Notes: generated by a model not told the origin, from the letters alone. A DNA stretch of 64,000 nucleotides from Terriglobia bacterium (GCA_009838515.1 VXRL01000002.1:83248-147247); one strand, 5' to 3'; positions 4,382 through 28,645 are shown, counted from the stretch's first letter. Program-made: numbers and translations.

Positions 4382-5578
4382 GTGAGAGGACTGCTACTGA
4401 CCACGCTGCTGGCACTGTCGGCGATAGGAGGGATCGCGCAAGTGACGGAATTCACCATCCGAGTCGAGGATGCCGCCCTCGCCGACCTCAAGGCGCGTCT
4501 GGAGCGGACGCGGCTGCCAGACCAGATCCCAGGCTCTGGCTGGGACTATGGATCGGATCGGGCGTACATGGAAGAGCTGCTGGAGTATTGGCGAACCGCG
4601 TATGACTGGCGCAAGCACGAAGCTCAACTGAACGAGTTGCCGCACTTCAAGACGTCCGTCGATGGCATCGACATGCATTTCGTGCATGTTCGCTCGAAGG
4701 AAGACTCGGCGATGCCCTTGGTGATAACTCACGGCTGGCCGGGGTCGGTGTACGAGTTCATGGACGTGATCGGTCCGCTGACCGATCCGGTTGGCCACGG
4801 GGGCAGGGCCGAGGATGCGTTCCACCTGGTCTTGCCGTCGATGCCTGGGTACGGCTTTTCAGGGCCGGCCCACCAGCGGGGCATGAGCGTTGACAGTGTG
4901 GCCGGCGTGGTTGCCAAGCTCATGGACCGTCTCGGCTATGAGCGGTACGCGGCTCAAGGCGGGGATTGGGGCTCGGGTGTCTCGTCTTGGCTGGCCCGCG
5001 ATTATCCCGACCGCTTGATCGGAATCCACCTCAACATGGTCGGCGGCGGTCCGCCCGCGGGCATGCAGGATCCCGAAAAAGGTATCCCTGAGTGGGAACT
5101 GAAGCGCTACCGGGAGCGCGCCGAGTGGTGGCGCGGCGAGAATGCCTACGGGAACATTCAGGGCTCCAAGCCCCTTACGCTGGCGTACGGTCTCAATGAC
5201 TCCCCGGCCGGCCTAGCGGCGTGGGTGGTGGAGAAGTTCCGCGCCTGGAGCGACTGCGGCGGCGATGTGGAGAGCCGGTTCACCAAGGACCAGCTCTTGA
5301 CCAACATCATGCTTTACTGGCTAACCGAGAGCATGCCTTCAGCCGTCCGGCTGTACTACGAGTCCCGTCGTAGCGGCCGCCAGCAGGTGCGCAGCGAAGT
5401 GCCGACTGCGATCGCGGTCTTTCCGGGCGAGATCTTCTTCTCGCCCCGCAAATGGGTAGAGACTCGCTACAACGTGCTGCAGTGGACCGAGATGCCGCGC
5501 GGAGGGCACTTCGCGGCGATGGAGGAGCCGGAACTCTACGTTGAGGACGTGGTCAAGTTCTTTCGCGGTCTACGCTGA
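4382..5578 (+). CDS. epoxide hydrolase (microsomal-type EH N-terminal domain plus alpha/beta hydrolase) with N-terminal signal or anchor
   Basis: The EHN-domain region reads EDAALADLKARLERTRLPDQIPGSGWDYGSDRAYMEELLEYW. It also has HGWPGS and a GGDWG nucleophile elbow. The hydrophobic N-terminus is VRGLLLTTLLALSAIGG. Confidence 0.85.
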   Translation: MRGLLLTTLLALSAIGGIAQVTEFTIRVEDAALADLKARLERTRLPDQIPGSGWDYGSDRAYMEELLEYWRTAYDWRKHEAQLNELPHFKTSVDGIDMHFVHVRSKEDSAMPLVITHGWPGSVYEFMDVIGPLTDPVGHGGRAEDAFHLVLPSMPGYGFSGPAHQRGMSVDSVAGVVAKLMDRLGYERYAAQGGDWGSGVSSWLARDYPDRLIGIHLNMVGGGPPAGMQDPEKGIPEWELKRYRERAEWWRGENAYGNIQGSKPLTLAYGLNDSPAGLAAWVVEKFRAWSDCGGDVESRFTKDQLLTNIMLYWLTESMPSAVRLYYESRRSGRQQVRSEVPTAIAVFPGEIFFSPRKWVETRYNVLQWTEMPRGGHFAAMEEPELYVEDVVKFFRGLR

Positions 5579-5581
5579 CGG

Positions 5582-5605
5582 GCCGTTGCCTGCGCGTGCA
5601 GCGGC
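5582..5605. terminator. hairpin between convergent stop codons
   Basis: GCCGTTGC (5582-5589) pairs with GCAGCGGC (5598-5605): 8 bp including one G-U, with an 8-nt loop. It sits between stop codons at 5576-5578 (+) and 5607-5609 (-). There is no U tract. Confidence 0.3.
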
Positions 5606-5606
5606 G

Positions 5607-6998
5607 CTACCGAGACGCGCTCGCGGCGAGTTCCTCGAGCTTGATCTGAATCTCCGCCTCCGGCAGCCACCGGCCGCGCACCATGACGCCGGCACGCTTG
5701 GCTACGTTGGCTGCGTCATCCAGCGGATTGGCTTCGAGCAGCACCAAGTCGGCACGGGCACCGACCTCGACTCGCCCGAACGCGTCGGACCCGAAATGCT
5801 CGGCCGCGTTCTTCGTTGCGGACGCCAGGATTTCGTAGGGCGTCAGGCCGGCGGACGCCATGATGCTGATTTCGCGGTGGATCGAAAAGCCCGGCACGTT
5901 GAAGATCTGCGGCGCGTCAGTGCCGAACGCGATCCGCGCTCCCTCGTCCTGCAATGCCTTGAGGATCTTCTTGCGTATCTCGATCACGCGCGCGCCGGAC
6001 TCGGCGTTCAGGCGCTCTTGGCGGCTGTTCTGCGATTCGATCCAGGCATCGACTGTTGCGCGGGGCAGGTACTTTAGCTCGTCGAAACCGGCATAGTGTT
6101 CTGTCGGCACGTCGGCGTTGAACGTTTCCCACAAAGCCATCGTTGGCACTGCTGAAGCGTTGGCGAGCTTGGTCGCTGAAACCAGGGCCGGAATCTTCTT
6201 CTCGTCGGCGTGCAACCCCATCTCGCGGCCGCGCGTGGCGGCGTCTGCGTTCTTGATCGGCGAATCGTCGGCTTCCAGCGCATCCAGGTAATTGTCCAAG
6301 TGGTCGATGCTGCCTTGGCCTGCTGCCAGCGCATGCAGCAGCCCGACCGGATTGGGAACGTGCCCGCCGAAGGGGATTCCCGCCAGGGTCGCTTCCTCGG
6401 CGATGGCGTCGTACACGTCCACGCTGAGTCCCTCGAGGATCTTGAGCGAGTCGAAGCCAGCCTCGTGCTGTTCGCGGACGCGTTGCCGGGCAACGTCTGC
6501 AGTCAAGTCCTCGGTCGCACGAAAGGCTGGCCCAGCCGCATAGATCGTCGGCCCCAGCCGCCTTCCTCCTGCGATCTGCTTGCGAAGCTCCAGATGCGAC
6601 GCGTTGCCGAGCATGCCGCGCACGGTTGTCACGCCGTTGGAGAGGAACAGGAAGAGGATCCGGTCGACCTCTTCGGGCGGGGTGTCAGCGCCGGGCAGGT
6701 GTGCGTGCATCTCGGTGAGGCCGGGAACGAGGTACTTGCCGCTCCCGTCCACGACCAGCGCTCCCCTTGGGACCTTGATCTCGGACGTCGGCCCCAGCTC
6801 GCTGATCTTCCCCAGCGAGGTGACGACGGTCTGGCCGTGCAAGACACGCTCGTTGTCCATCGGCACGACGCTGGCGTTAACGAAGGCTACCGTTCCCTCC
6901 GGCGCGCTCTGGCAGCCCAGCCCAAGCAGAAACGCGGACACTGCCGCCAGATACTTCGCGCTCATGACTCCTGCTCCGTCGAATGCATGCGTTGCCAC
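5607..6998 (-). CDS. amidohydrolase-family metallohydrolase, exported (lipoprotein-like signal)
   Basis: 463 aa. It has the HxH metal motif EMHAHLPG and an amidohydrolase-fold C-terminus (GTDAP...). The N-terminal signal contains LLGLGC. Confidence 0.8.
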   Translation of the reverse strand: MATHAFDGAGVMSAKYLAAVSAFLLGLGCQSAPEGTVAFVNASVVPMDNERVLHGQTVVTSLGKISELGPTSEIKVPRGALVVDGSGKYLVPGLTEMHAHLPGADTPPEEVDRILFLFLSNGVTTVRGMLGNASHLELRKQIAGGRRLGPTIYAAGPAFRATEDLTADVARQRVREQHEAGFDSLKILEGLSVDVYDAIAEEATLAGIPFGGHVPNPVGLLHALAAGQGSIDHLDNYLDALEADDSPIKNADAATRGREMGLHADEKKIPALVSATKLANASAVPTMALWETFNADVPTEHYAGFDELKYLPRATVDAWIESQNSRQERLNAESGARVIEIRKKILKALQDEGARIAFGTDAPQIFNVPGFSIHREISIMASAGLTPYEILASATKNAAEHFGSDAFGRVEVGARADLVLLEANPLDDAANVAKRAGVMVRGRWLPEAEIQIKLEELAASASR

Positions 6999-7032
6999 GC
7001 TTGGTGGCCCGCTGCAATCTTAACCCTCGGGA

Positions 7033-7512
7033 TCAGTCTTGTGGCTCCTGGAAGTTCTCGACCGTGTACTCGTAGTACGGCCCGCGCAGGAATCCGAGGA
7101 AGATTTCGTTGACCAGCTTGAGCGCCTTGCTGACGGCATAGTCCCAGTCGCCGTCCAGGCTCTGCAGCGATACCGACACCGATCCCTTCCGATTCCTGCT
7201 CTGCACCTTGGCGCGTTGCGAGTCGATGCGTCTGTGCCTCGGGAGCGTTTCGCCGCTCAGCCTGCGCAGGAAGCTCCGGAGATCCCTGTAGAGCGGGGCT
7301 GTCGGTGCCAGATTGGGCAACAGGTCGCGAAACTCGAGTGTGCCGCGGCGCGGATCGAAGATCAATCGGATAGGCCTCTCGCGCAGCCAGACGAAGGAGC
7401 ATTCCAAGCGGTTCCGCCGCCGTGCAGCGGCGAAGGAGCGGAAGACGCCTCGGTCGGCGCGCGAGCGCAGCAGCGCGTCGACGCTGTCCAACGGGTCCGG
7501 AGACTCCGGCAT
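7033..7512 (-). CDS. hypothetical cytoplasmic protein, translationally coupled to the upstream TPP enzyme
   Basis: 159 aa (MPESPDPL...ENFQEPQD). Its ATG shares one base with the TGA of the upstream gene (TGATG at 7514-7510). It has no signal peptide. The track merges it into a spurious 697-aa ORF. Confidence 0.6.
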   Translation of the reverse strand: MPESPDPLDSVDALLRSRADRGVFRSFAAARRRNRLECSFVWLRERPIRLIFDPRRGTLEFRDLLPNLAPTAPLYRDLRSFLRRLSGETLPRHRRIDSQRAKVQSRNRKGSVSVSLQSLDGDWDYAVSKALKLVNEIFLGFLRGPYYEYTVENFQEPQD

Positions 7513-9464
7513 CAGTGGTAGTAAGCCATGCAGCCCGGCTCGACCTTCTGCAGCAGGCCCGGGGGATAGTCCCGAGCGCTCCAGAACTCCTTGATCGCCT
7601 GGCAGTTGATGACCGTCGAGAGCCGCTCGTCTGCTGCCGCCTTGTAACTGCGTGCCAAGGCCGGAGCCAGGTCCTCGGCCTTGGTCACGTATTCTCCGCG
7701 CGCCCCGAGGGCTTCGCCGATCTTCTCGTAGCGCAGATTCTCTTGGAACAGGTACATGTGCTGGGCCCGTGCAGTCTCGCTGCGCCCGCCGCTGGCACCG
7801 GAGCGCCAGACCCCCCAAGCGTTGTTGTTGTACACCACCATGATCGTGGGAATCCGGTACTTGCTCAGAGTCTCCATCTCCATGCCCGAGTAGGCGAATC
7901 CAGCATCGCCCGTAACGGCGAGCACAGGCGCGCCCTTGTAGGGGGCTTGCGGGCCCGTGCCCTGCTGCACGGCTGCGCCGGCTCCGACCGTGTAGCCGAC
8001 GTCTGGCCCGATCGCTCCGTACTGGTAGGCCCCGTTGCAAATCTGGCCCGGGCGGAACGCTCTGAGCCGTCGGCGCGTGTAGCGCCCGACGCCGTAACCG
8101 CCCGACACCACGGTGGTTTGCTCCTTCGGAATATCTCCCTTGTAGAGCAGGTTCTCGATCTCGGCAGCAATCACTGCCGGATGGACGCACCCGGCCTGGG
8201 CGCTGTACTTGAGGCCGAGCTTGTAGTGCTCGTCGTTCTCTGCTTCGAACGCTGCGCGGGCCGCCGCCAACTCGTCGCGCCAAGCCGGGCGCTTCTTCTT
8301 GGGCAAGGCCTCGGCAAGTGCCTCCAAGGCGGCCTTTTCGCAGCTCACGATGCCGAGGTCGATCGGCAGGTTGCGCCCGATATCGGCAGCGTCCGGGTCG
8401 ATGCGAATGTAGGCGACGTCCGGATCGAACGAGTATTCGCCGATGTTGGGCATGCAGTACTGTCCGACCAAGACCACGAGGTCGGCGCTCAACAGGGCGT
8501 CGGGGGCTGCGTTGGCCGATAGGGGGTGCTCGTCGCCGAAGTGGCCTCGGCTGGGGCCCGATTCCACGACCGCGATGTCGGCTTTCTCGGCGACGGCCTT
8601 GAGCGCGTCCCAAGCCTTGCTGTAGAAGACGCCTGCGCTGGCCACGATGATCGGGCGTTCCGCCTTGGAGATCATGCTTGCCGCCTTGGCGATTTCCTTG
8701 GGCGACGGATGCGGACGCGATTCGGTGCGGTATTTCGACTTGTCGTAGAAGAATCGCAGATCCTCCGCGCTGTCGAAGCGCTCGCGCGCCACTTCGCCCG
8801 GAAAGTCCAGATGGACCGGGCGCGGCACGCCAGTCTTGAGCTGGCGGAAGGCGTAACCGGCGTATTCGTGCACGCGCTCGGGATTGATGAGGCGCTTGCC
8901 GTACTTCTTCATGCCTTCGGTCGTTGGCTGCTGGTAGACCCGCTGGATGCCGTGCTCTGTGTCTTCGAGCCCCAGCGTCATGTTGCTGGCCAGCACCAGC
9001 AGCGGCGAGCGCGCCGAGTTGGCGGCGGCGATGTTCATGATCATGTTCGTGAAGCCGGGGCCCTCGGTGCCCGATGCGGCCACGACCTCGCCGGTCACGC
9101 GGGCGAACCCGTCCGCAGCGGCGCACATCATGCCTTCGGTGCGGCCGCCGTAGCTGGGAATGCCCTCCGAGGCGATGGCGTTGATCACGACATAGTTGCC
9201 CGGGGCGCAGAACAGCGCGGCCAGTCCCTCGGCCTTGCAGGCCTTGGCGAAGATCTGAGCGCCTGTCATCGGGAAGTCGGGAGGCTTGGAATCTTCCGCG
9301 AGGCTCGCTGGCACCTCGCTCGGGAGCTTGATGTTGCCGTCGTGTCGCTCGGTGGTCGATGCCGCCGCGTCAGCGCCGGCCGCTACCGCCGCCGCCACCG
9401 CTCCCTTGGTCACGAATCCGCGCCTCGAAACGGTGCGCTCCGCCTTGCTGTGCTTGCTCGCCAT
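7512..9464 (-). CDS. thiamine-pyrophosphate-dependent enzyme (acetolactate synthase / pyruvate oxidase superfamily) with twin-arginine signal
   Basis: The TPP motif is [31 protein letters not shown] catalytic-Glu region ([20 protein letters not shown]) is present. The N-terminus [21 protein letters not shown] looks like a Tat signal. AGGAGA lies 7 nt upstream of the ATG at 9464. Confidence 0.85.
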
Positions 9465-12110: not shown

Positions 12111-13270
12111 CCCCGGCCGTCCGCGCGCAGGCTCTCGAGCGGATGTACGCGGTCCTTTAGCGGGAAGTCGATCACTTTGCGCTGAAGTTGCGAGGCATAC
12201 ATGCCTTGTGTCATTTCGACAGTCCAGCGTCCGGCACGCTCGCTGCAGGCGGGCTCGCCGCCTGTCTCGATCGCCCGCAGCAGGTCTTCCACCATCAGCG
12301 CGTTGGCCGTGAGGTGGCGCTCGCTGCCGAAACTGCGGTGCTCCGCCTCGATCAGCTCCCACTGCCGGTCGCGTCGCGGCACCCAAGCCGGAGATCGCAG
12401 GATGTAGGCCTCCGAGCTCTCGTCGTAGACCTCGTTGGGAAGGAAGATACAGCCCTGGGCGCCGAAGACGTGCGTTCCGAATCGCCACGGATGGGTCTGG
12501 CTGGACTCGTTCGAGGCGAAGTAGCCGTGCCGGCCCTGGCCGAACGAGAACATCGCGGACATCTGGCGGCCAGCGATGGGTCCGATCGGCTCGTTGGGCT
12601 TGCGCAAGTGGTCGAAGCTGAGTTCCTCGCCCTTGGACGTGATGTGCGAGAAGACCCATTCCGGATCTCCCAGCACGGCGCGCATCATGTCGAAGATGTG
12701 CGATCCGAGCACGACCAAGTCCTCGCCGCCGGCGCGATAGTCCTCCTTGCCCCGCCCCCTCACCTCGTGGATCTCGCCGATCTCGCCGGATTGGATCATT
12801 TCCAGGGCCTTGAGCGTGAACGGAGACCGCCGCATCTGGTGCGCCAGCTGGACCTTGACGCCGGCCTTGCGGATGGCATCCACCATTTGATCGGCGTCTT
12901 CCAGCGTGGCTGCGAAGGGCTTCTCGAGATACATGTGGCAGCCCGCTTGGGCGGCCGCAGTCACCATCGCGAGCCTCTGGTCGGTGTGGCGCGGGCAGAT
13001 GCTGACGATGTCGGGCTTCTCCCTCGCAAGCAGTTCTCGGTAATCGGCGTAGGCGTGCGCGGCGCCGGTTCGCTCCTGCGCCTTGGTGCGGCCGTCCTCG
13101 TCCGGGTCGGCGACTGCGACGACCTGCGTCTGGGGGAATACGGGCCAGACGTCCCCGATGCCGTGGCCGAAGTTGCCCCGGCCGGTGTGGCCGATCACAC
13201 CGACTCGGTAGCGGACCTGAGCGCTGAGTGGGACCGCGAGTGCGGTCGCGAGGAAATGCCTGCGCTGCAT
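12107..13270 (-). CDS. Gfo/Idh/MocA-family oxidoreductase with twin-arginine signal
   Basis: The N-terminus MQRRHFLATALAVPLSAQ looks like a Tat signal. It is followed by the Rossmann motif VGVIGHTGRGNFGHG. Confidence 0.85.
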   Translation of the reverse strand: MQRRHFLATALAVPLSAQVRYRVGVIGHTGRGNFGHGIGDVWPVFPQTQVVAVADPDEDGRTKAQERTGAAHAYADYRELLAREKPDIVSICPRHTDQRLAMVTAAAQAGCHMYLEKPFAATLEDADQMVDAIRKAGVKVQLAHQMRRSPFTLKALEMIQSGEIGEIHEVRGRGKEDYRAGGEDLVVLGSHIFDMMRAVLGDPEWVFSHITSKGEELSFDHLRKPNEPIGPIAGRQMSAMFSFGQGRHGYFASNESSQTHPWRFGTHVFGAQGCIFLPNEVYDESSEAYILRSPAWVPRRDRQWELIEAEHRSFGSERHLTANALMVEDLLRAIETGGEPACSERAGRWTVEMTQGMYASQLQRKVIDFPLKDRVHPLESLRADGRG

Positions 13271-21839: not shown

Positions 21840-21898
21840 CGGATCGCTCTGAACGGGTTCTCGCCACCTAGCGGAGCGCTACACTGAGGTTAGTTCTA

Positions 21899-24800
21899 GT
21901 GCCGGAATGGGTGCCTCAGAAATGCGCTGTGCTTGCCGAAAAACCCTCGGTCGCGCGCGACATTTCGAGGGTGCTGGGAGCGACCGGGAGGGGCAGCGGA
22001 TTCTTCCACGGCAACGGCGTGGTGGTGACGTGGGCGATCGGCCATCTGGTGCACCTGGCCGAGCCGCACCAGATCGATCCGGCATGGAAGGAGTGGCGGC
22101 GCGCGCTGCTGCCCATGCTCCCGGGCGACTGGCCGCTGATCGTCGACGAGGAGCGGGCAGACCAGTTCGGCGTCGTCAAGAAGATCCTCAACAGCCCGAA
22201 GATCGATCGGGTGGTCTGCGCCACCGACGCCGGCCGCGAGGGCGAGCTGATCTTCCGCCAGATATATGCGGCCGCGGGCTCGTCCAAGCCCGTGGACCGG
22301 CTTTGGATTTCGTCGCTCACGCAGGATGCGATCCGGCGCGGCTTCCAGAACTTGCAACCGTCCAGTGGCTTCGACGATTTGGCGGCCGCCGCGCGGGCGA
22401 GAAGCCGCGCCGACTGGCTCGTCGGCATGAATCTCACGCGGGCCTACACGCTGGACCACGCCGAGAGCGAAGTGCTCTCGGTAGGGCGGGTGCAGACTCC
22501 AACTCTGGCCATGCTGGTGGAACGCGAGATTGCCATACGGGACTTCGTGCCCGAGGACTACTTGGAGGTCCACGCCGAATTCGATGCAGGCGAGGGACGG
22601 CGCTATCGTGGCGTCTACTTCCGGCTCGAGAAGGGCAAGCGGCAGCAGCGGCTTCCGGCTGACGGCAAGGCAGCGGCGGAGATCGTTGCGAGGGCTCGGG
22701 CCGGCCGCGCCGACATCGTCTCGGTCAAGCGGACCCGGCATCGCCAGCCGCCGCCGCGCCTGTATGACCTCACAGAGCTCCAGCGGCACGCCAACCGCTT
22801 GTACGGCTTCAGCGCCGAGCGCACCCTCGGCATAGCGCAGGCGCTGTACGAGAAGCACAAGGCGATCACATATCCCCGCACCGATAGCCGCTTCCTGTCC
22901 AGCGACGTTGCCAGCCAAGCGCCGCAGATCGCGTCGCGCGTGGCGCGCCGCTATGACGAATCCTTGCTCGCGCCCGGCACTGGCACCGAACCGCTGCCCG
23001 GTCGGTTCGTGAACAATGCCAAGGTCACCGACCACCACGCCATCATTCCGACCGGTTCGGGCCGCGGCGTGCGCGATGGGTCGGCCGAAGCGAAGGTGCT
23101 TGACCTGATCAATCGCCGCTTCCTGCAGGCGTGGCACTCGGAGCACCGCTATTCGTCCACGACCTTGATCACCCGCGTCGTGCACAAGGCCGATGAGGAT
23201 CAGTACCTGTCGAGCGGCAAGGCCATTGACGACCCCGGCTGGAAGCTGCTTGACGTCGCGCCGACGAGCAAGCGCGAGCCCAAGTCCGAGCAGGATCTGC
23301 CGAGCGGCTTGCGTCAGGGCCAGAGGGTGGAGGTGCAAGCGGCCGAGGCAGTCAAGAAGAGGACCAAGCCGCCGCCGCGGTTCACGGACGCAACCTTGCT
23401 GACGGCCATGGAGTCGGCGGGCAAGACGCTTGACAGCCAAGCGCTCTCTGATGCCATGAAGGAGCGCGGGATCGGCACGCCTGCGACCCGTGCCTCGATC
23501 ATCGAAACTCTCCTGAAGCGTTCCTACGTCGAGCGCGAGAAAAAGACCCTGCGAGCCACCGAAAAGGGGATCCGCCTGCTCGACCTGGTTCATCCCAAGG
23601 TCCGCAGCCCCGAAATGACCGGAGAGTGGGAGGCCAAGCTGCGCAGCATCGAGCGTGGCGACGGCGGCTACGCCAAGTTCATGCGGAGCATTGAGGAGTT
23701 CGTGCGCGATGTTGTCGGCGATTCTGGCAACGGTTCAGGCTCCGCAAGCGACCGCGACGCATCCCGCTCTCAGCTGGTGCCGAGCCCGCAGCAGCCCGCA
23801 GCCCGCACCCGGCAGCACCCGCAGCCGAAACAGCGGAAAGCGCTCGCAGCCGACCAAGCTCAAAGGCCCGCGGGCGCGCCCGATGCGGAATCGAGCGTAC
23901 CGAGCGGACCCTCCGAGGAAAGAGCGCCCGCCGCTGCCAAGCCGGCACTCCAGCGGCACGGCTTCGGCTCGCCGCCGCCCGATCAGCCGGCCTCGCCGCT
24001 ACCCTCGCAAGCCGGGCCGAAGCCGGTTTCCGTCTCCCCGGAACGGCTGAACGACCTGCTGCGATCGCGCTTCGGGCATGCCTCCTTCCGCCCCAACCAA
24101 GAGGCGGTCTGCCGGGATGTCGTAGCCGGCAGGGACGTGCTGCTCGTCATGCCCACTGGAGCCGGCAAGTCGCTCTGCTACCAGCTGCCCGGAATCGCCC
24201 GCGGCGACACGACCATCGTGATCAGTCCTCTGATCGCACTGATGGAGGACCAGACGGACAAGCTGCGCCAGCAGGGGTTCAATGCCGAGCGGATTCACTC
24301 TGGCCGCGACCGGCTTGAATCGCGGCGCGTGTGCAAGGAATATGTCGCAGGCGAGCTGGATTTTCTCTACATCGCTCCCGAGCGCTTGGCCGTGCCGGGC
24401 TTTCCCGAATTCTTGGCCAAGCGCACGCCAGCTCTGGTCGCCATTGACGAGGCGCATTGTATCTCCATGTGGGGCCATGACTTCCGCCCGGAATACAGAC
24501 GCTTGCGCGAGCGCTTGCCGTCCCTGCGCCCGGCCCCGGTGATAGCGCTGACGGCGACGGCCACCCCCATCGTCCAGCGCGACGTGATCGACCAATTGGG
24601 CTTGGGGGATTGCAAGCGCTCGATTCATGGGTTCCGGCGCGAGAACCTGCAGATCGAACTCGTGGAACTCGTGCCGTCGCTCCGGCCCGGTGCCTTGGCA
24701 AGGCTGATGCTTGATGACTCGCGGCGGCCGGCGATTGTCTACGCCCCGACCCGCAAGGCCGCCGAGGAGCAGGCCGAGCTCTTGCAGTCGAGCATGACCG

Positions 24801-26104
24801 CAGCTGCCTATCACGCCGGCATGCTTGCCGAGGACCGCGACCGGGTGCAGGCCGCGTTCCTGCGGGGCGACCTTGAAGTCATCGTCGCTACGATCGCTTT
24901 CGGCATGGGCATCGACAAGCCGGATGTGCGCACGGTTGTCCATACCGGGCTGCCCGGTTCGATCGAGAGCTACTACCAAGAGATCGGCCGAGCGGGCCGC
25001 GACGGACTGCCCTCCAAGGCAGTCCTGCTGCACTCGTGGGCGGACCGCAAGACGCACGAATTCTTCTTGGACCGGGATTATCCCGAGCCGCCCAAGCTCG
25101 AGGCCATGTTCAACCGCCTCAGTTCGGCCAAGCTGCCGATCAGCGACTTGGCCGCGGACTTTTCCGGCGATTCCGAACAGTTCGAGAAGGCGCTCGAAAA
25201 GCTGTGGATGCACGGTGGCGTGAGAATCGACGCGGACGATCAGGCCACCAAGGGCGACGGTAGGTGGCGGGCGAGCTATGACCAGCAGCGCGCCTACAAG
25301 ATCCGGCAGCTAGATCAGGTGAGCGAATTCACCCGGTCCAACCAGTGCCGCATGCTCGACTTGGTGCGGCACTTCGACGACGTCGAGGATTCGCTCAAGC
25401 CCTGCCAGCATTGCGACAACTGTGATGCGGAGACCTGCACTGTCAAGACGTTCCGGCCGCCCACGCCGCAGGAATCGGCTGTGCTGGACACGATTCGACA
25501 GGCCCTGCGCGAGCGTGACGGACAGTCGGTCGGCAAGGTCTTTCGCGATTGCGTGGAGCCGAACAAGGTGGATCGAAAGACGTTTGAGCGGCTGGTAGAC
25601 GGTCTGGAGCGGGCGGATCTGGCACGCGTCGCCCCCGATTCGTTTGTCAACGCGCAGGGTGAGTCGATCCAGTTTCGCCGTATCTCGCTTACGCCCGAGG
25701 GTCGCAGTGCGGCCAGCCTCGGCAGCCGCATTAGGTTGCCCGAGGAGGGCGCTGGATTGAAGCCCGCGAAGCGGGCATCGCGTCCGAGAAAGGGCGCTAA
25801 GGCGGGCTCTGCAGGAAAGCGCAACGGTAGTCGCGCCACGAAGCAGTTTGGCTTGGGAGAGGCCCCGCCTCGCGACGATTCTGACGAGCTGATCTTCTCC
25901 GCGTTGCGGGCTTGGCGAAAGACCGAAGCGGGAAGACGCCGGATGCCCGCGTTTCGCGTGTTTCCCGATCGCACCTTGAACGCCTTGGTCGATCGCAAGC
26001 CTTCGAACGAAGCGGAACTGTTAGACGTGCCCGGCGTCGGGCCTACGCTCGCGAAGAAGTACGGGGAGCAGCTGATCCGGGTCATTCGCAGTTCCGGCGT
26101 TTGA
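21899..26104 (+). CDS. fusion protein: DNA topoisomerase III (type IA) N-terminal module plus RecQ helicase C-terminal module
   Basis: The topoisomerase part has VLAEKPSVARDI, ATDAGREGE (as I recall for B. subtilis TopB) and catalytic-Tyr motif ITYPRTDSR. A linker of about 105 aa (nt ~23720-24040) is rich in P, A, S and Q. The RecQ part has FRPNQ, MPTGAGKSLCYQLP, DEAHCISMWGHDFRPEY and YYQEIGRAGRDG. It also has a Zn cluster (C...CQHCDNCD) and a C-terminal HRDC domain. One open frame of 1401 aa. Confidence 0.85.
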   Translation: MPEWVPQKCAVLAEKPSVARDISRVLGATGRGSGFFHGNGVVVTWAIGHLVHLAEPHQIDPAWKEWRRALLPMLPGDWPLIVDEERADQFGVVKKILNSPKIDRVVCATDAGREGELIFRQIYAAAGSSKPVDRLWISSLTQDAIRRGFQNLQPSSGFDDLAAAARARSRADWLVGMNLTRAYTLDHAESEVLSVGRVQTPTLAMLVEREIAIRDFVPEDYLEVHAEFDAGEGRRYRGVYFRLEKGKRQQRLPADGKAAAEIVARARAGRADIVSVKRTRHRQPPPRLYDLTELQRHANRLYGFSAERTLGIAQALYEKHKAITYPRTDSRFLSSDVASQAPQIASRVARRYDESLLAPGTGTEPLPGRFVNNAKVTDHHAIIPTGSGRGVRDGSAEAKVLDLINRRFLQAWHSEHRYSSTTLITRVVHKADEDQYLSSGKAIDDPGWKLLDVAPTSKREPKSEQDLPSGLRQGQRVEVQAAEAVKKRTKPPPRFTDATLLTAMESAGKTLDSQALSDAMKERGIGTPATRASIIETLLKRSYVEREKKTLRATEKGIRLLDLVHPKVRSPEMTGEWEAKLRSIERGDGGYAKFMRSIEEFVRDVVGDSGNGSGSASDRDASRSQLVPSPQQPAARTRQHPQPKQRKALAADQAQRPAGAPDAESSVPSGPSEERAPAAAKPALQRHGFGSPPPDQPASPLPSQAGPKPVSVSPERLNDLLRSRFGHASFRPNQEAVCRDVVAGRDVLLVMPTGAGKSLCYQLPGIARGDTTIVISPLIALMEDQTDKLRQQGFNAERIHSGRDRLESRRVCKEYVAGELDFLYIAPERLAVPGFPEFLAKRTPALVAIDEAHCISMWGHDFRPEYRRLRERLPSLRPAPVIALTATATPIVQRDVIDQLGLGDCKRSIHGFRRENLQIELVELVPSLRPGALARLMLDDSRRPAIVYAPTRKAAEEQAELLQSSMTAAAYHAGMLAEDRDRVQAAFLRGDLEVIVATIAFGMGIDKPDVRTVVHTGLPGSIESYYQEIGRAGRDGLPSKAVLLHSWADRKTHEFFLDRDYPEPPKLEAMFNRLSSAKLPISDLAADFSGDSEQFEKALEKLWMHGGVRIDADDQATKGDGRWRASYDQQRAYKIRQLDQVSEFTRSNQCRMLDLVRHFDDVEDSLKPCQHCDNCDAETCTVKTFRPPTPQESAVLDTIRQALRERDGQSVGKVFRDCVEPNKVDRKTFERLVDGLERADLARVAPDSFVNAQGESIQFRRISLTPEGRSAASLGSRIRLPEEGAGLKPAKRASRPRKGAKAGSAGKRNGSRATKQFGLGEAPPRDDSDELIFSALRAWRKTEAGRRRMPAFRVFPDRTLNALVDRKPSNEAELLDVPGVGPTLAKKYGEQLIRVIRSSGV

Positions 26105-26469
26105 GGGCGTAGTGGTCGTCTGAGATCGCTGCCCAGCCCTGCGTGGCACCGGCCGCGCCTTCGATTGAGATGCGGATTATGCGCATCGAGAGAACCGGCC
26201 TTGTAGGTTCCACGCTCAGATCTCGGCATGCGAATCGCACATCTACTGTCGCTCCGGACAGGGACGAACGATTCGGACTCGGCACCGTGATCGGTCGGAA
26301 CTGCGGCAACGCTCTGACCGCTTTTCAGAAGCAGGCGAGGCCACGGCTGCGACCGTTCCGGGCGAGCCGCTCGTGCGAAGAGGTCGCCCATTGGACTACG
26401 AGACACCCGAATCCGAGGGAGGTCTGGCCTACATGTCTGGAAGGGCATCGCCTGGCCGCGTCCCGCGAC

Positions 26470-28035
26470 CTATCCGGAGATTCGCCGCGCGTGTCGACGA
26501 AGCCTCTGCCAAGCCTGCCGAACCGGGCTCAGGCAGAGCAACAGCCCGCCTAGGCACAGCGTGATGACGGTGAGGTCCCATAGGGGACGGCGATCGTAGA
26601 GGAATCGGAAGTCGAGGCTATGCAGACCGTGATACAACCAGCGGTTCAGCCGGGTGAGCCGCTCTTCCTTGCGAAGGATGAGCCCTCGTTGCGGATCGAC
26701 GTAGAGCCACGTGCGCACGGCGTCGGCGAATCGCAGCCGAAGAACCGGAATCGGGAGAGTCCGGTTCCGCGAGTAGTAATAGCTGTCGTAGTCCTCCAGC
26801 CAGGAGGAATCCGCAATCGGGGTTCCGGCCATCGCCTCGGCTGCGGCTGATCGAAGCCGGGCAACCGAGAAGCGCTCGAACGTCGGTGCCGCAGGATGGG
26901 CGAGCGACACTGCGGCGTGCTGCATGGGCTGCACCGAGGAAAGAAACGCAGTCGGTCCGGCGCGCCTTCCAGGCGGAGCGGGCGTTGGAGGTCGATAGGC
27001 GAGCAAGAACGGTTCGCCGGAGAATTGCAGGACCTCCAGCTCTTTCGGCACGAAGGATCCGGCGACGGCTGCCGCACCCGTGCGGATCCTGTCCAGTGTG
27101 ACGGCTTCGAGCCGAAGGGACCCTCCCGCAAAGGCTTCCCGCTGCTCCCGGGTCGGCGAGGATGGCGGATGCCAGTCCCACGGGTCCAGCGACAAGCATC
27201 CACTCAGGACCCATGTAAACGTCGTAAGGCCGAACGCAAGGCCAGCGAAATGGTGCCAGCGCATTAGGCCAGAATACGGAGATCGATAGCGTACTCCCCG
27301 GATCCGGTACCTGGCCGTGACGGAGACTCGCCAGATACCCCAGGCGATGCCCGATAACGCTAGTATGCAGCCAGCGATTGCCAGCCAGATCACCGTATTG
27401 ATCCACAACGTGGTACGGAGCCGAAACGGCGTGAAGTACAGCCAGTGCGTCACAGCCCCCAGATAGCCCCACAGCCTTCCCGTCCTTGTCGTCTCCATGA
27501 CCGGCTCACCCGAGCGCGAGGAGACATAGAGATGAGTGCCCGCCGGATCGTCGAACTCGATCCGATGGGCCGGCATCAGGTTGCGCAACGAAATCGTCCA
27601 TTGGTCGGGTTCGCGCAACAGCGTCGACGACGTGACGCGGTAAGCATCGAAGGACAGGAAACGCCTGGCGATCCTTTCCGCGCCGCGAGTGTCCATCGAT
27701 CGCATCGACTCTCCCGTATCCGCGAACACCGTTGACCAGTCCCCGCCGCGCGAGAAGCGGTAGACGGGCCTGTCTCCGAGCATTGCGACGCGGAACCGCT
27801 CCGGCGCGAAGTCCGCCCGACGAGCCGCTACATTGGGTGGGACAGCCAGCGCGGAAAGATCCAGCTTCGCCATCCGCCGCAATCGATCTTCAGGCGCCAA
27901 GCTGGGCATCCGCTTGTACATCATCACGATGCCGGAGGAAAACCATGCGGCGAACAAAATGCAGCCGCAAATGCCCAGCCAGCGGTGCGTGTAGATCAAT
28001 GCTCGGCGGAAGGGGAACCGAGGGATGCGCGGCAC
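26470..28035 (-). CDS. PepSY-associated TM-helix protein (PiuB-like iron-regulated membrane protein)
   Basis: The N-terminus reads FRRALIYTHRWLGICGCILF. Several TM segments follow in the typical PepSY_TM arrangement. The start is a GTG at 28035. Confidence 0.8.
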   Translation of the reverse strand: MPRIPRFPFRRALIYTHRWLGICGCILFAAWFSSGIVMMYKRMPSLAPEDRLRRMAKLDLSALAVPPNVAARRADFAPERFRVAMLGDRPVYRFSRGGDWSTVFADTGESMRSMDTRGAERIARRFLSFDAYRVTSSTLLREPDQWTISLRNLMPAHRIEFDDPAGTHLYVSSRSGEPVMETTRTGRLWGYLGAVTHWLYFTPFRLRTTLWINTVIWLAIAGCILALSGIAWGIWRVSVTARYRIRGVRYRSPYSGLMRWHHFAGLAFGLTTFTWVLSGCLSLDPWDWHPPSSPTREQREAFAGGSLRLEAVTLDRIRTGAAAVAGSFVPKELEVLQFSGEPFLLAYRPPTPAPPGRRAGPTAFLSSVQPMQHAAVSLAHPAAPTFERFSVARLRSAAAEAMAGTPIADSSWLEDYDSYYYSRNRTLPIPVLRLRFADAVRTWLYVDPQRGLILRKEERLTRLNRWLYHGLHSLDFRFLYDRRPLWDLTVITLCLGGLLLCLSPVRQAWQRLRRHARRISG

Positions 28036-28042
28036 CTGAGGA

Positions 28043-28645
28043 CTACCGAACGACGAGCGATACGGTCAGCGTTACCTGCCTTGGCCTGCCGCTACGTGCA
28101 GACGGACCGCGGGAAATGTCGCCGTTCCAGAAGCACTCTTTGTCGAAGAGATTGTGAGCGGGGAGGGCTGTGAGCGATGGTCCGCGCCCCCGCGAGACAG
28201 CGGCATCCACGAGGGTGTAGGAACTGAACCTGAGTGTATTCCCTTGATGGACTTGGGCCGGCCCCAAACGTTTCACGTCGAAAGCCACGTCCGCGCTCCG
28301 GGCGCCCGAGATCGTGGCACCACCGCTGAGCACGACGCCAGGTACGGTCGGTAGCCGATTGTCGGTCAGCACCGTGTCGCTGCTGGCGGACTGAATCACG
28401 AAATCTCCGAAGCGATCACGGCAGAAACACGCGTTCGCATGGCCCGCTACGCGGCGGCCTGGATCCCAGCGCAATCCACTTTCGAAACCCCGGCACCGGT
28501 GTTCGCCGGCGTTCGACGGCAGGAAGGAGGGACGCTGCCAGACTATCGTAACGATGCCATCACGACGCATCCAGAACAAGCCACCTTCCACGGTAAGTTC
28601 TCCGTCGAACGCGTGTGCCTTGAGCCCGGCCGCGTGGTTGTCCAC
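28043..28645 (-). pseudogene. C-terminal remnant of a TonB-dependent receptor
   Basis: The 200-aa ORF resembles only the last beta-strands of a TBDR (...NLFDKECFWNG...GRPRQVTLTVSLVVR). There is no plug or N-terminal barrel. A divergent gene begins about 115 bp beyond it. It sits 7 nt upstream of the PepSY gene, its usual partner. Confidence 0.5.

Follow-up and report, generated by a model that had tools for sequence, protein, structure and literature searches.

The window considered here is a 64,000-nucleotide stretch from a Terriglobia bacterium of soil type, probably a member of Bryobacterales (GCA_009838515.1, VXRL01000002.1:83248-147247), and the subject is a single gene within it, at 21899..26104 on the plus strand (stop codon included), in which Pfam and NCBIfam profiles delineate the order topoisomerase III (Topo III), linker, RecQ helicase. 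The open reading frame (ORF) starts with GTG, is preceded 9 nt upstream by a Shine-Dalgarno-like GAGG (21886..21889, plus strand) and runs for 1401 aa without a single internal stop. Six Pfam domains, each scoring over its gathering cut-off, are found in the product: Toprim (aa 11-138), Topoisom_bac (aa 159-595, E-value 1e-112), DEAD (aa 731-889), Helicase_C (aa 933-1036), RecQ_Zn_bind (aa 1127-1175) and HRDC (aa 1332-1396). A scan for promoters and terminators around the gene yielded nothing informative.

The initial annotation, made from the DNA alone, had described one continuous 1401-aa ORF joining both enzymes, and the stop-free translation, together with the presence of domains of both, bears this out. 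All the motifs that it quoted were recovered in the translation, namely, VLAEKPS (with Glu14), ATDAGREGE (aa 108-116) and ITYPRTDSR (with Tyr325) in the topoisomerase half, and FRPNQ (aa 730-734), MPTGAGKSLCYQLP (aa 751-764), DEAHCISMWGHDFRPEY (aa 850-866) and YYQEIGRAGRDG (aa 1025-1036) in the helicase half; Pfam and the translation also agree with it on the zinc-binding cysteine cluster and the HRDC domain. The linker was likewise described accurately as stop-free and rich in Pro, Ala, Ser and Gln. By contrast, the argument that a third-position G/C bias marks the coding frame of the linker did not hold. GC at codon positions 1, 2 and 3 of the linker is 0.77, 0.66 and 0.75, and all three frames are free of stops. 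Since GC is similar across positions and no frame contains a stop, linker composition cannot discriminate the frame, and it is the comparative data given below that carry this point.

The topoisomerase III half

The N-terminal half contains a full type IA topoisomerase core of the Topo III subfamily (aa 11-606). The Toprim domain (21929..22312, plus strand; PF01751, 34 bits against a cut-off of 23.1) holds Glu14 and the ATDAGREGE motif, residues that are invariant or nearly so among homologues. It is followed by Topoisom_bac (22373..23683, plus strand; PF01131, 377 bits against 35.1), the type IA cleavage and strand-passage core, in which the codon of the catalytic Tyr325 occupies 22871..22873 on the plus strand. 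NCBIfam models are consistent with this assignment: NF005829 'DNA topoisomerase 3' scores 656 bits (cut-off 597) and TIGR01056 topB 574.5 bits (cut-off 515.75). The half is assigned to the PRK07726 subfamily. Among solved structures, the best match is E. coli Topo III (1d6m, E-value 3e-86), and the half can be aligned to residues 5-595 of the E. coli enzyme with short gaps only. The decatenation-loop region (E. coli residues 502-519) aligns without gaps to aa ~506-524, which are less basic than in E. coli. Judged by these alignments and profiles, the N-terminal half belongs to the type IA topoisomerases, Topo III subfamily. Conserved topoisomerase sequence stops at aa ~606, and the C-terminal DNA-binding tail of stand-alone Topo III is replaced by the linker and RecQ.

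The RecQ half

The C-terminal half is a RecQ family member in which the core motifs, the four zinc-binding cysteines, the winged helix and the HRDC domain are all present. The helicase core (aa 717-1036; 24047..25006, plus strand), recognised by Pfam, by TIGR00614 and by alignment to the E. coli RecQ core 1oyw (the best match among solved structures, E-value 1e-90), includes motif 0, Lys757 of Walker A, DEAH at aa 850-853, the aromatic loop and RAGRDG. The general family model TIGR00614 (recQ_fam) scores 394 bits against a cut-off of 219.8. The canonical recQ equivalog level is not reached, with 492 bits against 640.2 for TIGR01389 and 388 against 1015 for PRK11057, and by these scores the RecQ half represents a distinct subfamily and not canonical bacterial RecQ.

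In the AlphaFold2 model of aa 700-1401 (predicted local distance difference test score, pLDDT, 85.6; predicted TM-score, pTM, 0.78), two RecA-like domains are followed by a Zn-binding subdomain with an insert of ~55 aa, a winged helix, a spacer and HRDC. The top Foldseek matches in the PDB are the RecQ cores 4tmu and 1oyw (E-value ~1e-33, TM-score 0.72-0.73, ~590 columns including the winged helix). The insert (aa 1064-1118; 25088..25252, plus strand) lies within the Zn-binding subdomain and is modelled as a winged-helix-like unit of three helices and a hairpin with pLDDT ~90. Stand-alone relatives in Acidobacteriaceae align through it without gaps, which marks it as a trait of this RecQ subfamily. 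The Zn cluster comprises Cys1150, Cys1169, Cys1172 and Cys1175 (25346..25423, plus strand), matched by Pfam RecQ_Zn_bind, with all four cysteines invariant. The RQC-type winged helix (aa 1190-1264; 25466..25690, plus strand) gives no match to the Pfam RQC model and is recognised by fold only, both in the AlphaFold2 model and by Foldseek. A second disordered spacer, basic and variable in length (aa 1294-1324; 25778..25870, plus strand; pLDDT <50), precedes the HRDC domain (aa 1332-1396; 25892..26086, plus strand; Pfam E-value 4e-18), which is modelled as a helical bundle.

The linker between the two modules

The two enzymes are separated by a Pro/Ala/Ser/Gln-rich linker (aa 607-716, 110 aa; 23717..24046, plus strand), for which composition, alignment and modelling consistently predict disorder. 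Of the 109 residues at aa 608-716, 20 are Pro, 18 Ala, 16 Ser and 11 Gln. We also modelled both modules together in a 1200-aa construct comprising part of the Topo core, the linker and RecQ. The resulting model has a pTM of 0.50, and the linker is entirely coil with pLDDT ~29. The disordered linker and the lack of a confident geometry between the modules are suggestive of two folded machines on a flexible string. No PDB chain holds both modules.

Linker length ranges from 9 to 362 aa among 224 fused proteins (median 100) and from 31 to 196 aa in the alignment of 17 sequences described below. In a Polyangiaceae metagenome-assembled genome (MAG; locus L004, ~7850-8200), the linker of the fusion is built of tandem ARGAA(A/S)PAV repeats, indicating that linkers can expand through repeat amplification.

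Distribution and conservation of the fusion

A search of 5.8 billion protein clusters recovered at least 120 clusters that match the protein at 50-92% identity over essentially its full length, and among the matches listed all 120 combine topoisomerase and RecQ-helicase domains in one protein, with the six Pfam domains of the window protein. Several of the matching clusters are located on Mb-size contigs, and the named sources are proteins called "DNA topoisomerase 3" from Bryobacterales, Bryobacteraceae, Thermoanaerobaculia or Acidobacteriota MAGs. In addition, an exhaustive HMMER pass with aa 202-1401 as the query was made over 1.84 billion representatives of 50%-identity clusters, and the retrieved sequences were checked with BLAST. 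Both halves and a covered junction were present in 224 of the 323 retrieved proteins, 55 of which are themselves representatives of 50%-identity clusters, with identity down to ~33-40%. Fused loci in GTDB species genomes belong to Bryobacterales, Solibacteraceae, Bryobacter and Terriglobia. Others come from MAGs labelled Oligoflexus (L003), Polyangiaceae (L004) and 'uncultured proteobacterium' (L036, with a linker of ~20 aa), and divergent members, among them one from a Zetaproteobacteria MAG, have the same architecture; some caution is advisable with MAG labels other than Acidobacteriota.

At the level of genomic loci, an uninterrupted stop-to-stop ORF spans both halves in 10 out of 13 cases, three of these ten being in MAGs labelled outside Acidobacteriota. 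The remaining loci, all in MFD-series MAGs, are frameshifted in the Topo half (L011), in the RecQ half (L048) or between the halves (L009). The frameshifts of L011 and L048 lie inside a single half, which points to sequencing error, and all three breaks likely reflect errors in long-read MAGs rather than biology. The syntenic orthologue with 84% identity, located on a 6.47-Mb contig, is also fused. Thus, of the two matters that the initial annotation had left to comparison, uniformly split orthologous loci, which would have spoken against the fusion, were not encountered, as the orthologues are fused, and the domain architecture proved to be common, occurring in hundreds of sequences.

Conservation was assessed in an alignment of 17 sequences with 55-84% identity to the window protein. 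Asp110, Glu114, Tyr325, Lys757, the DEAH motif (aa 850-853) and the four zinc-binding cysteines are invariant, and Glu14 is nearly so. Mean pairwise identity is 0.66 in the Topo core, 0.75 in the helicase core, 0.49 in the Zn-binding and winged-helix region, 0.53 in HRDC and 0.21 in the linker. The retention of the active-site residues, together with this identity pattern, suggests that both halves are maintained as active enzymes, and the linker appears to be constrained solely in keeping the frame and the composition. By these comparisons, the covalent fusion is real and under selection.

Genomic context and evolution

The fusion gene is chromosomal and is bordered on both sides by genes on the opposite strand. 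The same genes flank it in the window and at the locus of the 84%-identity orthologue: an amine oxidase, a GAF-SpoIIE phosphatase, a glyoxalase and MeaB upstream, and a Zn-ribbon gene and a TPR gene downstream. Gene context is unlike between Bryobacterales and Thermoanaerobaculia. Neither repair, SSB or RMI1-like genes nor dpd or mobile-element genes were found near the fusion gene in the window, L081 or L082, and there is no second type IA topoisomerase or RecQ gene in the 64-kb window.

The same RecQ subtype also exists as a stand-alone protein, with 46-52% identity across the entire RecQ half, in Acidobacteriaceae (Tunturibacter, Granulicella, Edaphobacter), Holophagae and Ktedonobacteraceae. 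We also considered a split ancestral operon and rejected it, as no topB lies within 6 kb of the stand-alone RecQ loci L010, L012-L027 and L039 and these loci thus give no hint of neighbouring genes as a precursor. In rough neighbour-joining trees, which were made without support values and are indicative only, all Topo halves of fusions fall in one clade, and the RecQ halves share a clade with the stand-alone RecQs, apart from canonical RecQ, with short-linker members basal. Tentatively, the simplest reading of these trees would be one old fusion followed by fissions and transfers.

Two further features of the surroundings can be described. In the window, the fusion gene is separated from the Zn-ribbon gene by a stretch of ~2.5 kb (26143-28645), which contains a minus-strand ORF of 521 aa with no Pfam or PADLOC match and, beside it in another frame, a 200-aa piece matching the end of a TonB-dependent-receptor barrel. 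The syntenic locus L081 does not have this stretch, and its next gene follows at 12419, shortly after the stop of the fusion at 12308. The difference is an indel, and the stretch may be what is left of a receptor gene. In the Thermoanaerobaculia locus L082, an AAA_21/AAA_15 ATPase and a 291-aa gene without Pfam domains lie divergently upstream of the fusion (5525-7704) and a FitA-PIN toxin-antitoxin pair lies downstream, a context that is not conserved elsewhere.

Proposed function and alternative explanations

Topo III-type enzymes work together with RecQ helicases in every domain of life, and type IA enzymes strictly need single-stranded DNA. The partners are brought together by SSB in E. 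coli and by RMI1 and the N-terminus of BLM/Sgs1 in eukaryotes. RecQ unwinding provides single-stranded DNA for strand passage by Topo III. Together, the two enzymes catenate or decatenate duplex DNA, and they also act on converging forks, which they resolve, and on double Holliday junctions, which they dissolve (PMC7245102; PMC8185306). We consider it probable that the fusion is a tethered RecQ-Topo III pair which unlinks replication and recombination intermediates. The RecQ part would unwind duplex DNA in the 3'->5' direction at gaps, forks or junctions at the expense of ATP, producing the single-stranded region required by the type IA enzyme; the tethered Topo III would then cut one strand with Tyr325, pass another strand or duplex through the break and reseal it. 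As a result, catenated or hemicatenated intermediates, such as late replication intermediates, converging forks and double Holliday junctions, would be unlinked. The tether would guarantee 1:1 stoichiometry and a high local concentration, and the covalent link would stand in for the recruitment that is carried out elsewhere by SSB or RMI1. Since the tether is predicted to be disordered and its length is unconstrained, coupling would most likely occur by proximity, and a fixed helicase-gate interface as in reverse gyrase seems unlikely from the model. The protein may act as a 'single-chain dissolvasome'; the predicted disorder of the linker and the lack of a fixed geometry between the modules agree better with a tether than with tight integration of the reverse gyrase type.

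Several observations weigh against a tethered pair of active enzymes. In the Toprim motif ATDAGREGE, Gly occupies the position of the second Asp of the E. coli DPDRE; the same variant occurs in stand-alone Topo III relatives, which identifies it as a subfamily trait and not decay. One Polyangiaceae MAG (JAVTWR01) encodes, besides the fusion L004, a stand-alone RecQ of the same subtype (L027; 49% identity to the RecQ half of the window protein). A transient interface between the modules is conceivable, the output of the two-module model having come without predicted aligned error. Finally, an in-frame GTG at the end of the Topo core, coding for Val602 (nt 23702), is preceded by GAGGAG (23682-23704 in the window, aa 596-602) and might in principle serve as an internal start for a separate product consisting of the linker and RecQ. 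The initial annotation was therefore incorrect in stating that no in-frame start with a ribosome-binding site precedes the helicase, and correct in that the next Met after the junction, Met751, lies inside helicase motif I. Another in-frame GTG near the junction, Val627, has no Shine-Dalgarno-like sequence.

A more far-reaching proposal is less likely than not. In it, Bryobacterales-type Acidobacteriota would have no other RecQ/Topo III system than this chain, which would be a self-sufficient dissolvasome, performing ATP-dependent decatenation and the dissolution of double Holliday junctions or hemicatenanes with no need of SSB or an RMI1-like cofactor and outperforming the separated halves.

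An assembly artefact, that is, a stop or frameshift missed between adjacent topB and recQ genes, would be compatible with a linker that is stop-free in every frame, such that the single sequence cannot fix the frame, and with the frameshifts in the three related loci (L009, L011, L048). However, the same in-frame fusion recurs across hundreds of independent assemblies from several sources, and separate adjacent topB and recQ genes occur at none of the loci examined, leaving this explanation a negligible probability. It is also improbable that the arrangement serves co-expression only, with two separate enzymes released through an internal start or through proteolysis of the linker and the link itself mechanistically idle. 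The Val602 GTG behind GAGGAG would provide the start, the disordered and unconserved linker would be accessible to proteases, and the occurrence of this RecQ subtype as a stand-alone protein in Acidobacteriaceae, Holophagae and Ktedonobacteraceae implies that the helicase can work alone. Yet, the presence of GAGGAG is explained by coding, as it specifies the conserved Glu-Glu of IEEFV at the last Topo helix, and in some members linkers of 9-20 aa leave no room for an internal start signal. Moreover, if selection favoured separate products, stops and frame changes would be expected to be common in a linker of 9-362 aa, whereas 224 proteins and 10 of the 13 loci are in a single frame, and the three broken loci carry frameshifts within a half or stem from long-read MAGs.

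The remaining alternatives assign the protein to a different kind of system. Tight coupling of the two modules for ATP-driven directional supercoiling, instead of unlinking, is very unlikely. Reverse gyrase is the known fusion of a helicase and a type IA topoisomerase (PMC7245102), and the NCBIfam rgy model does match the Topo core partially; however, that match (TIGR01054) reaches 116 bits against a cut-off of 471.7 and is confined to the core. Furthermore, the domain order is inverted, as Topo comes first in the chain. The helicase is a complete RecQ that includes Zn-binding, winged-helix and HRDC domains, and a latch insertion was not noted in it. The disordered linker of 9-362 aa gives no confident inter-module geometry, and the hosts, by their source names, appear to be mesophilic environmental bacteria. 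Hardly credible is a role as a component of a defence system or mobile element, for example as the helicase 'DpdF' of the Dpd 7-deazaguanine system or as a Topo III of a plasmid or an integrative and conjugative element. The PADLOC model PDLC02865, labelled 'DpdF' (1499 positions), matches aa 9-1304 across both halves with 1485 bits. The other PADLOC 'DpdF' models (~610 positions), on the contrary, match the RecQ core only and resemble ordinary RecQ; together with the lack of dpd genes nearby, this suggests that the label is a by-product of the clustering of RecQ-like sequences. Consistently, the NCBIfam DpdF equivalog NF041063 scores 180 bits against a cut-off of 550, neither Dpd partners nor mobile-element genes were found around the gene at the three loci inspected (the window, L081 and L082), and synteny with the 84%-identity relative is kept both upstream and downstream. 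PDLC02865 was evidently built from the Topo III-RecQ fusion family, and the PADLOC 'DpdF' set looks mislabelled or over-broad.

Significance of the fusion

Full-text literature searches, which do not extend to subscription-only papers, returned no published description of a Topo III-RecQ fusion, and neither RecQ nor a RecQ-type fusion is mentioned in two surveys of how the domains of microbial type IA topoisomerases are organised (PMC9369019; PMC10969213). It had been remarked at the outset that no characterised example was known; it turned out that the architecture is common, whereas a characterisation was not found in the searchable literature. The fusion is real and widespread, its components and their cooperation are already known, and no characterisation of the fused form was found. 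Public databases name the protein "DNA topoisomerase 3" or "RecQ family helicase", so that two annotation problems are exposed, uninformative protein names and a PADLOC model that reads "DpdF".

The role of Topo III in bacterial recombination is described as physiologically poorly defined (PMC13244152). If the fusion acts as a tethered pair, it would provide independent evolutionary evidence for a RecQ-Topo III partnership in bacteria and a single-chain system with 1:1 stoichiometry in which strand passage coupled to a helicase could be studied by structural and single-molecule methods; natural linkers of 9-362 aa would allow coupling to be tested against tether length. Should it prove to be a sole and self-sufficient dissolvasome, it would further offer a minimal model of the BLM-TOP3A machine on a single chain, along with Rosetta-stone evidence that the partnership is physiological in bacteria. 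A 2020 paper states that hyperthermophiles have "uniquely" fused helicase and topoisomerase units in the form of reverse gyrase (PMC7245102). This picture is altered by a second natural fusion, found widely among mesophilic bacteria of soils and sediments, in which the order is opposite, the RecQ is complete and the tether is flexible.

Comparison with known systems

The closest counterpart in terms of enzymes is E. coli RecQ with Topo III (and SSB), which represents the same two families and the same expected chemistry, namely, single-stranded DNA made by the helicase feeding strand passage; this strand-passage system is that of Harmon, DiGate & Kowalczykowski 1999 and Suski & Marians 2008, as cited in PMC7245102 and PMC8185306. 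Unlike the E. coli pair, the fusion is one polypeptide with a disordered tether and without the Topo III tail. The RecQ of the fusion is of a distinct subfamily, in which the winged-helix-like insert is additional, and the Topo half differs from E. coli Topo III in belonging to the PRK07726 subfamily with the ATDAGREGE Toprim motif. In the eukaryotic BLM-TOP3A-RMI1/2 and Sgs1-Top3-Rmi1 complexes, as in the fusion, an HRDC-bearing RecQ helicase is physically linked to a Topo III-type enzyme, and the presumed shared task is the dissolution of joint molecules. There, however, the link is non-covalent and involves the N-terminus of the helicase and the oligonucleotide/oligosaccharide-binding fold of RMI1, which also modulates the topoisomerase gate, whereas in the fusion the topoisomerase is N-terminal to the helicase in the same chain and an RMI1-like partner is not evident at the loci examined.

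Reverse gyrase is likewise a single chain, the only natural one described so far in which a type IA topoisomerase is fused to a helicase-like module of superfamily 2 (SF2) (PMC7245102). The domain order is the opposite, and the helicase module, which works as a nucleotide switch and is non-processive, has a latch but no Zn-binding, winged-helix or HRDC domains. Its coupling is rigid, it introduces positive supercoils and it is confined to (hyper)thermophiles, whereas the linker of the fusion is predicted to be disordered. In Sulfolobus, the RecQ-like SF2 helicase Hel112 cooperates with Topo III on Holliday junctions and forks (Valenti et al. 2012, as cited in PMC8185306). In that case the two are separate proteins and Hel112 does not have the RecQ C-terminal domains, which the fusion carries within its single chain. 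Overall, by the features compared, the protein belongs to the Topo III family and to the RecQ family alike, and it is neither a canonical RecQ equivalog nor a reverse gyrase nor a DpdF.

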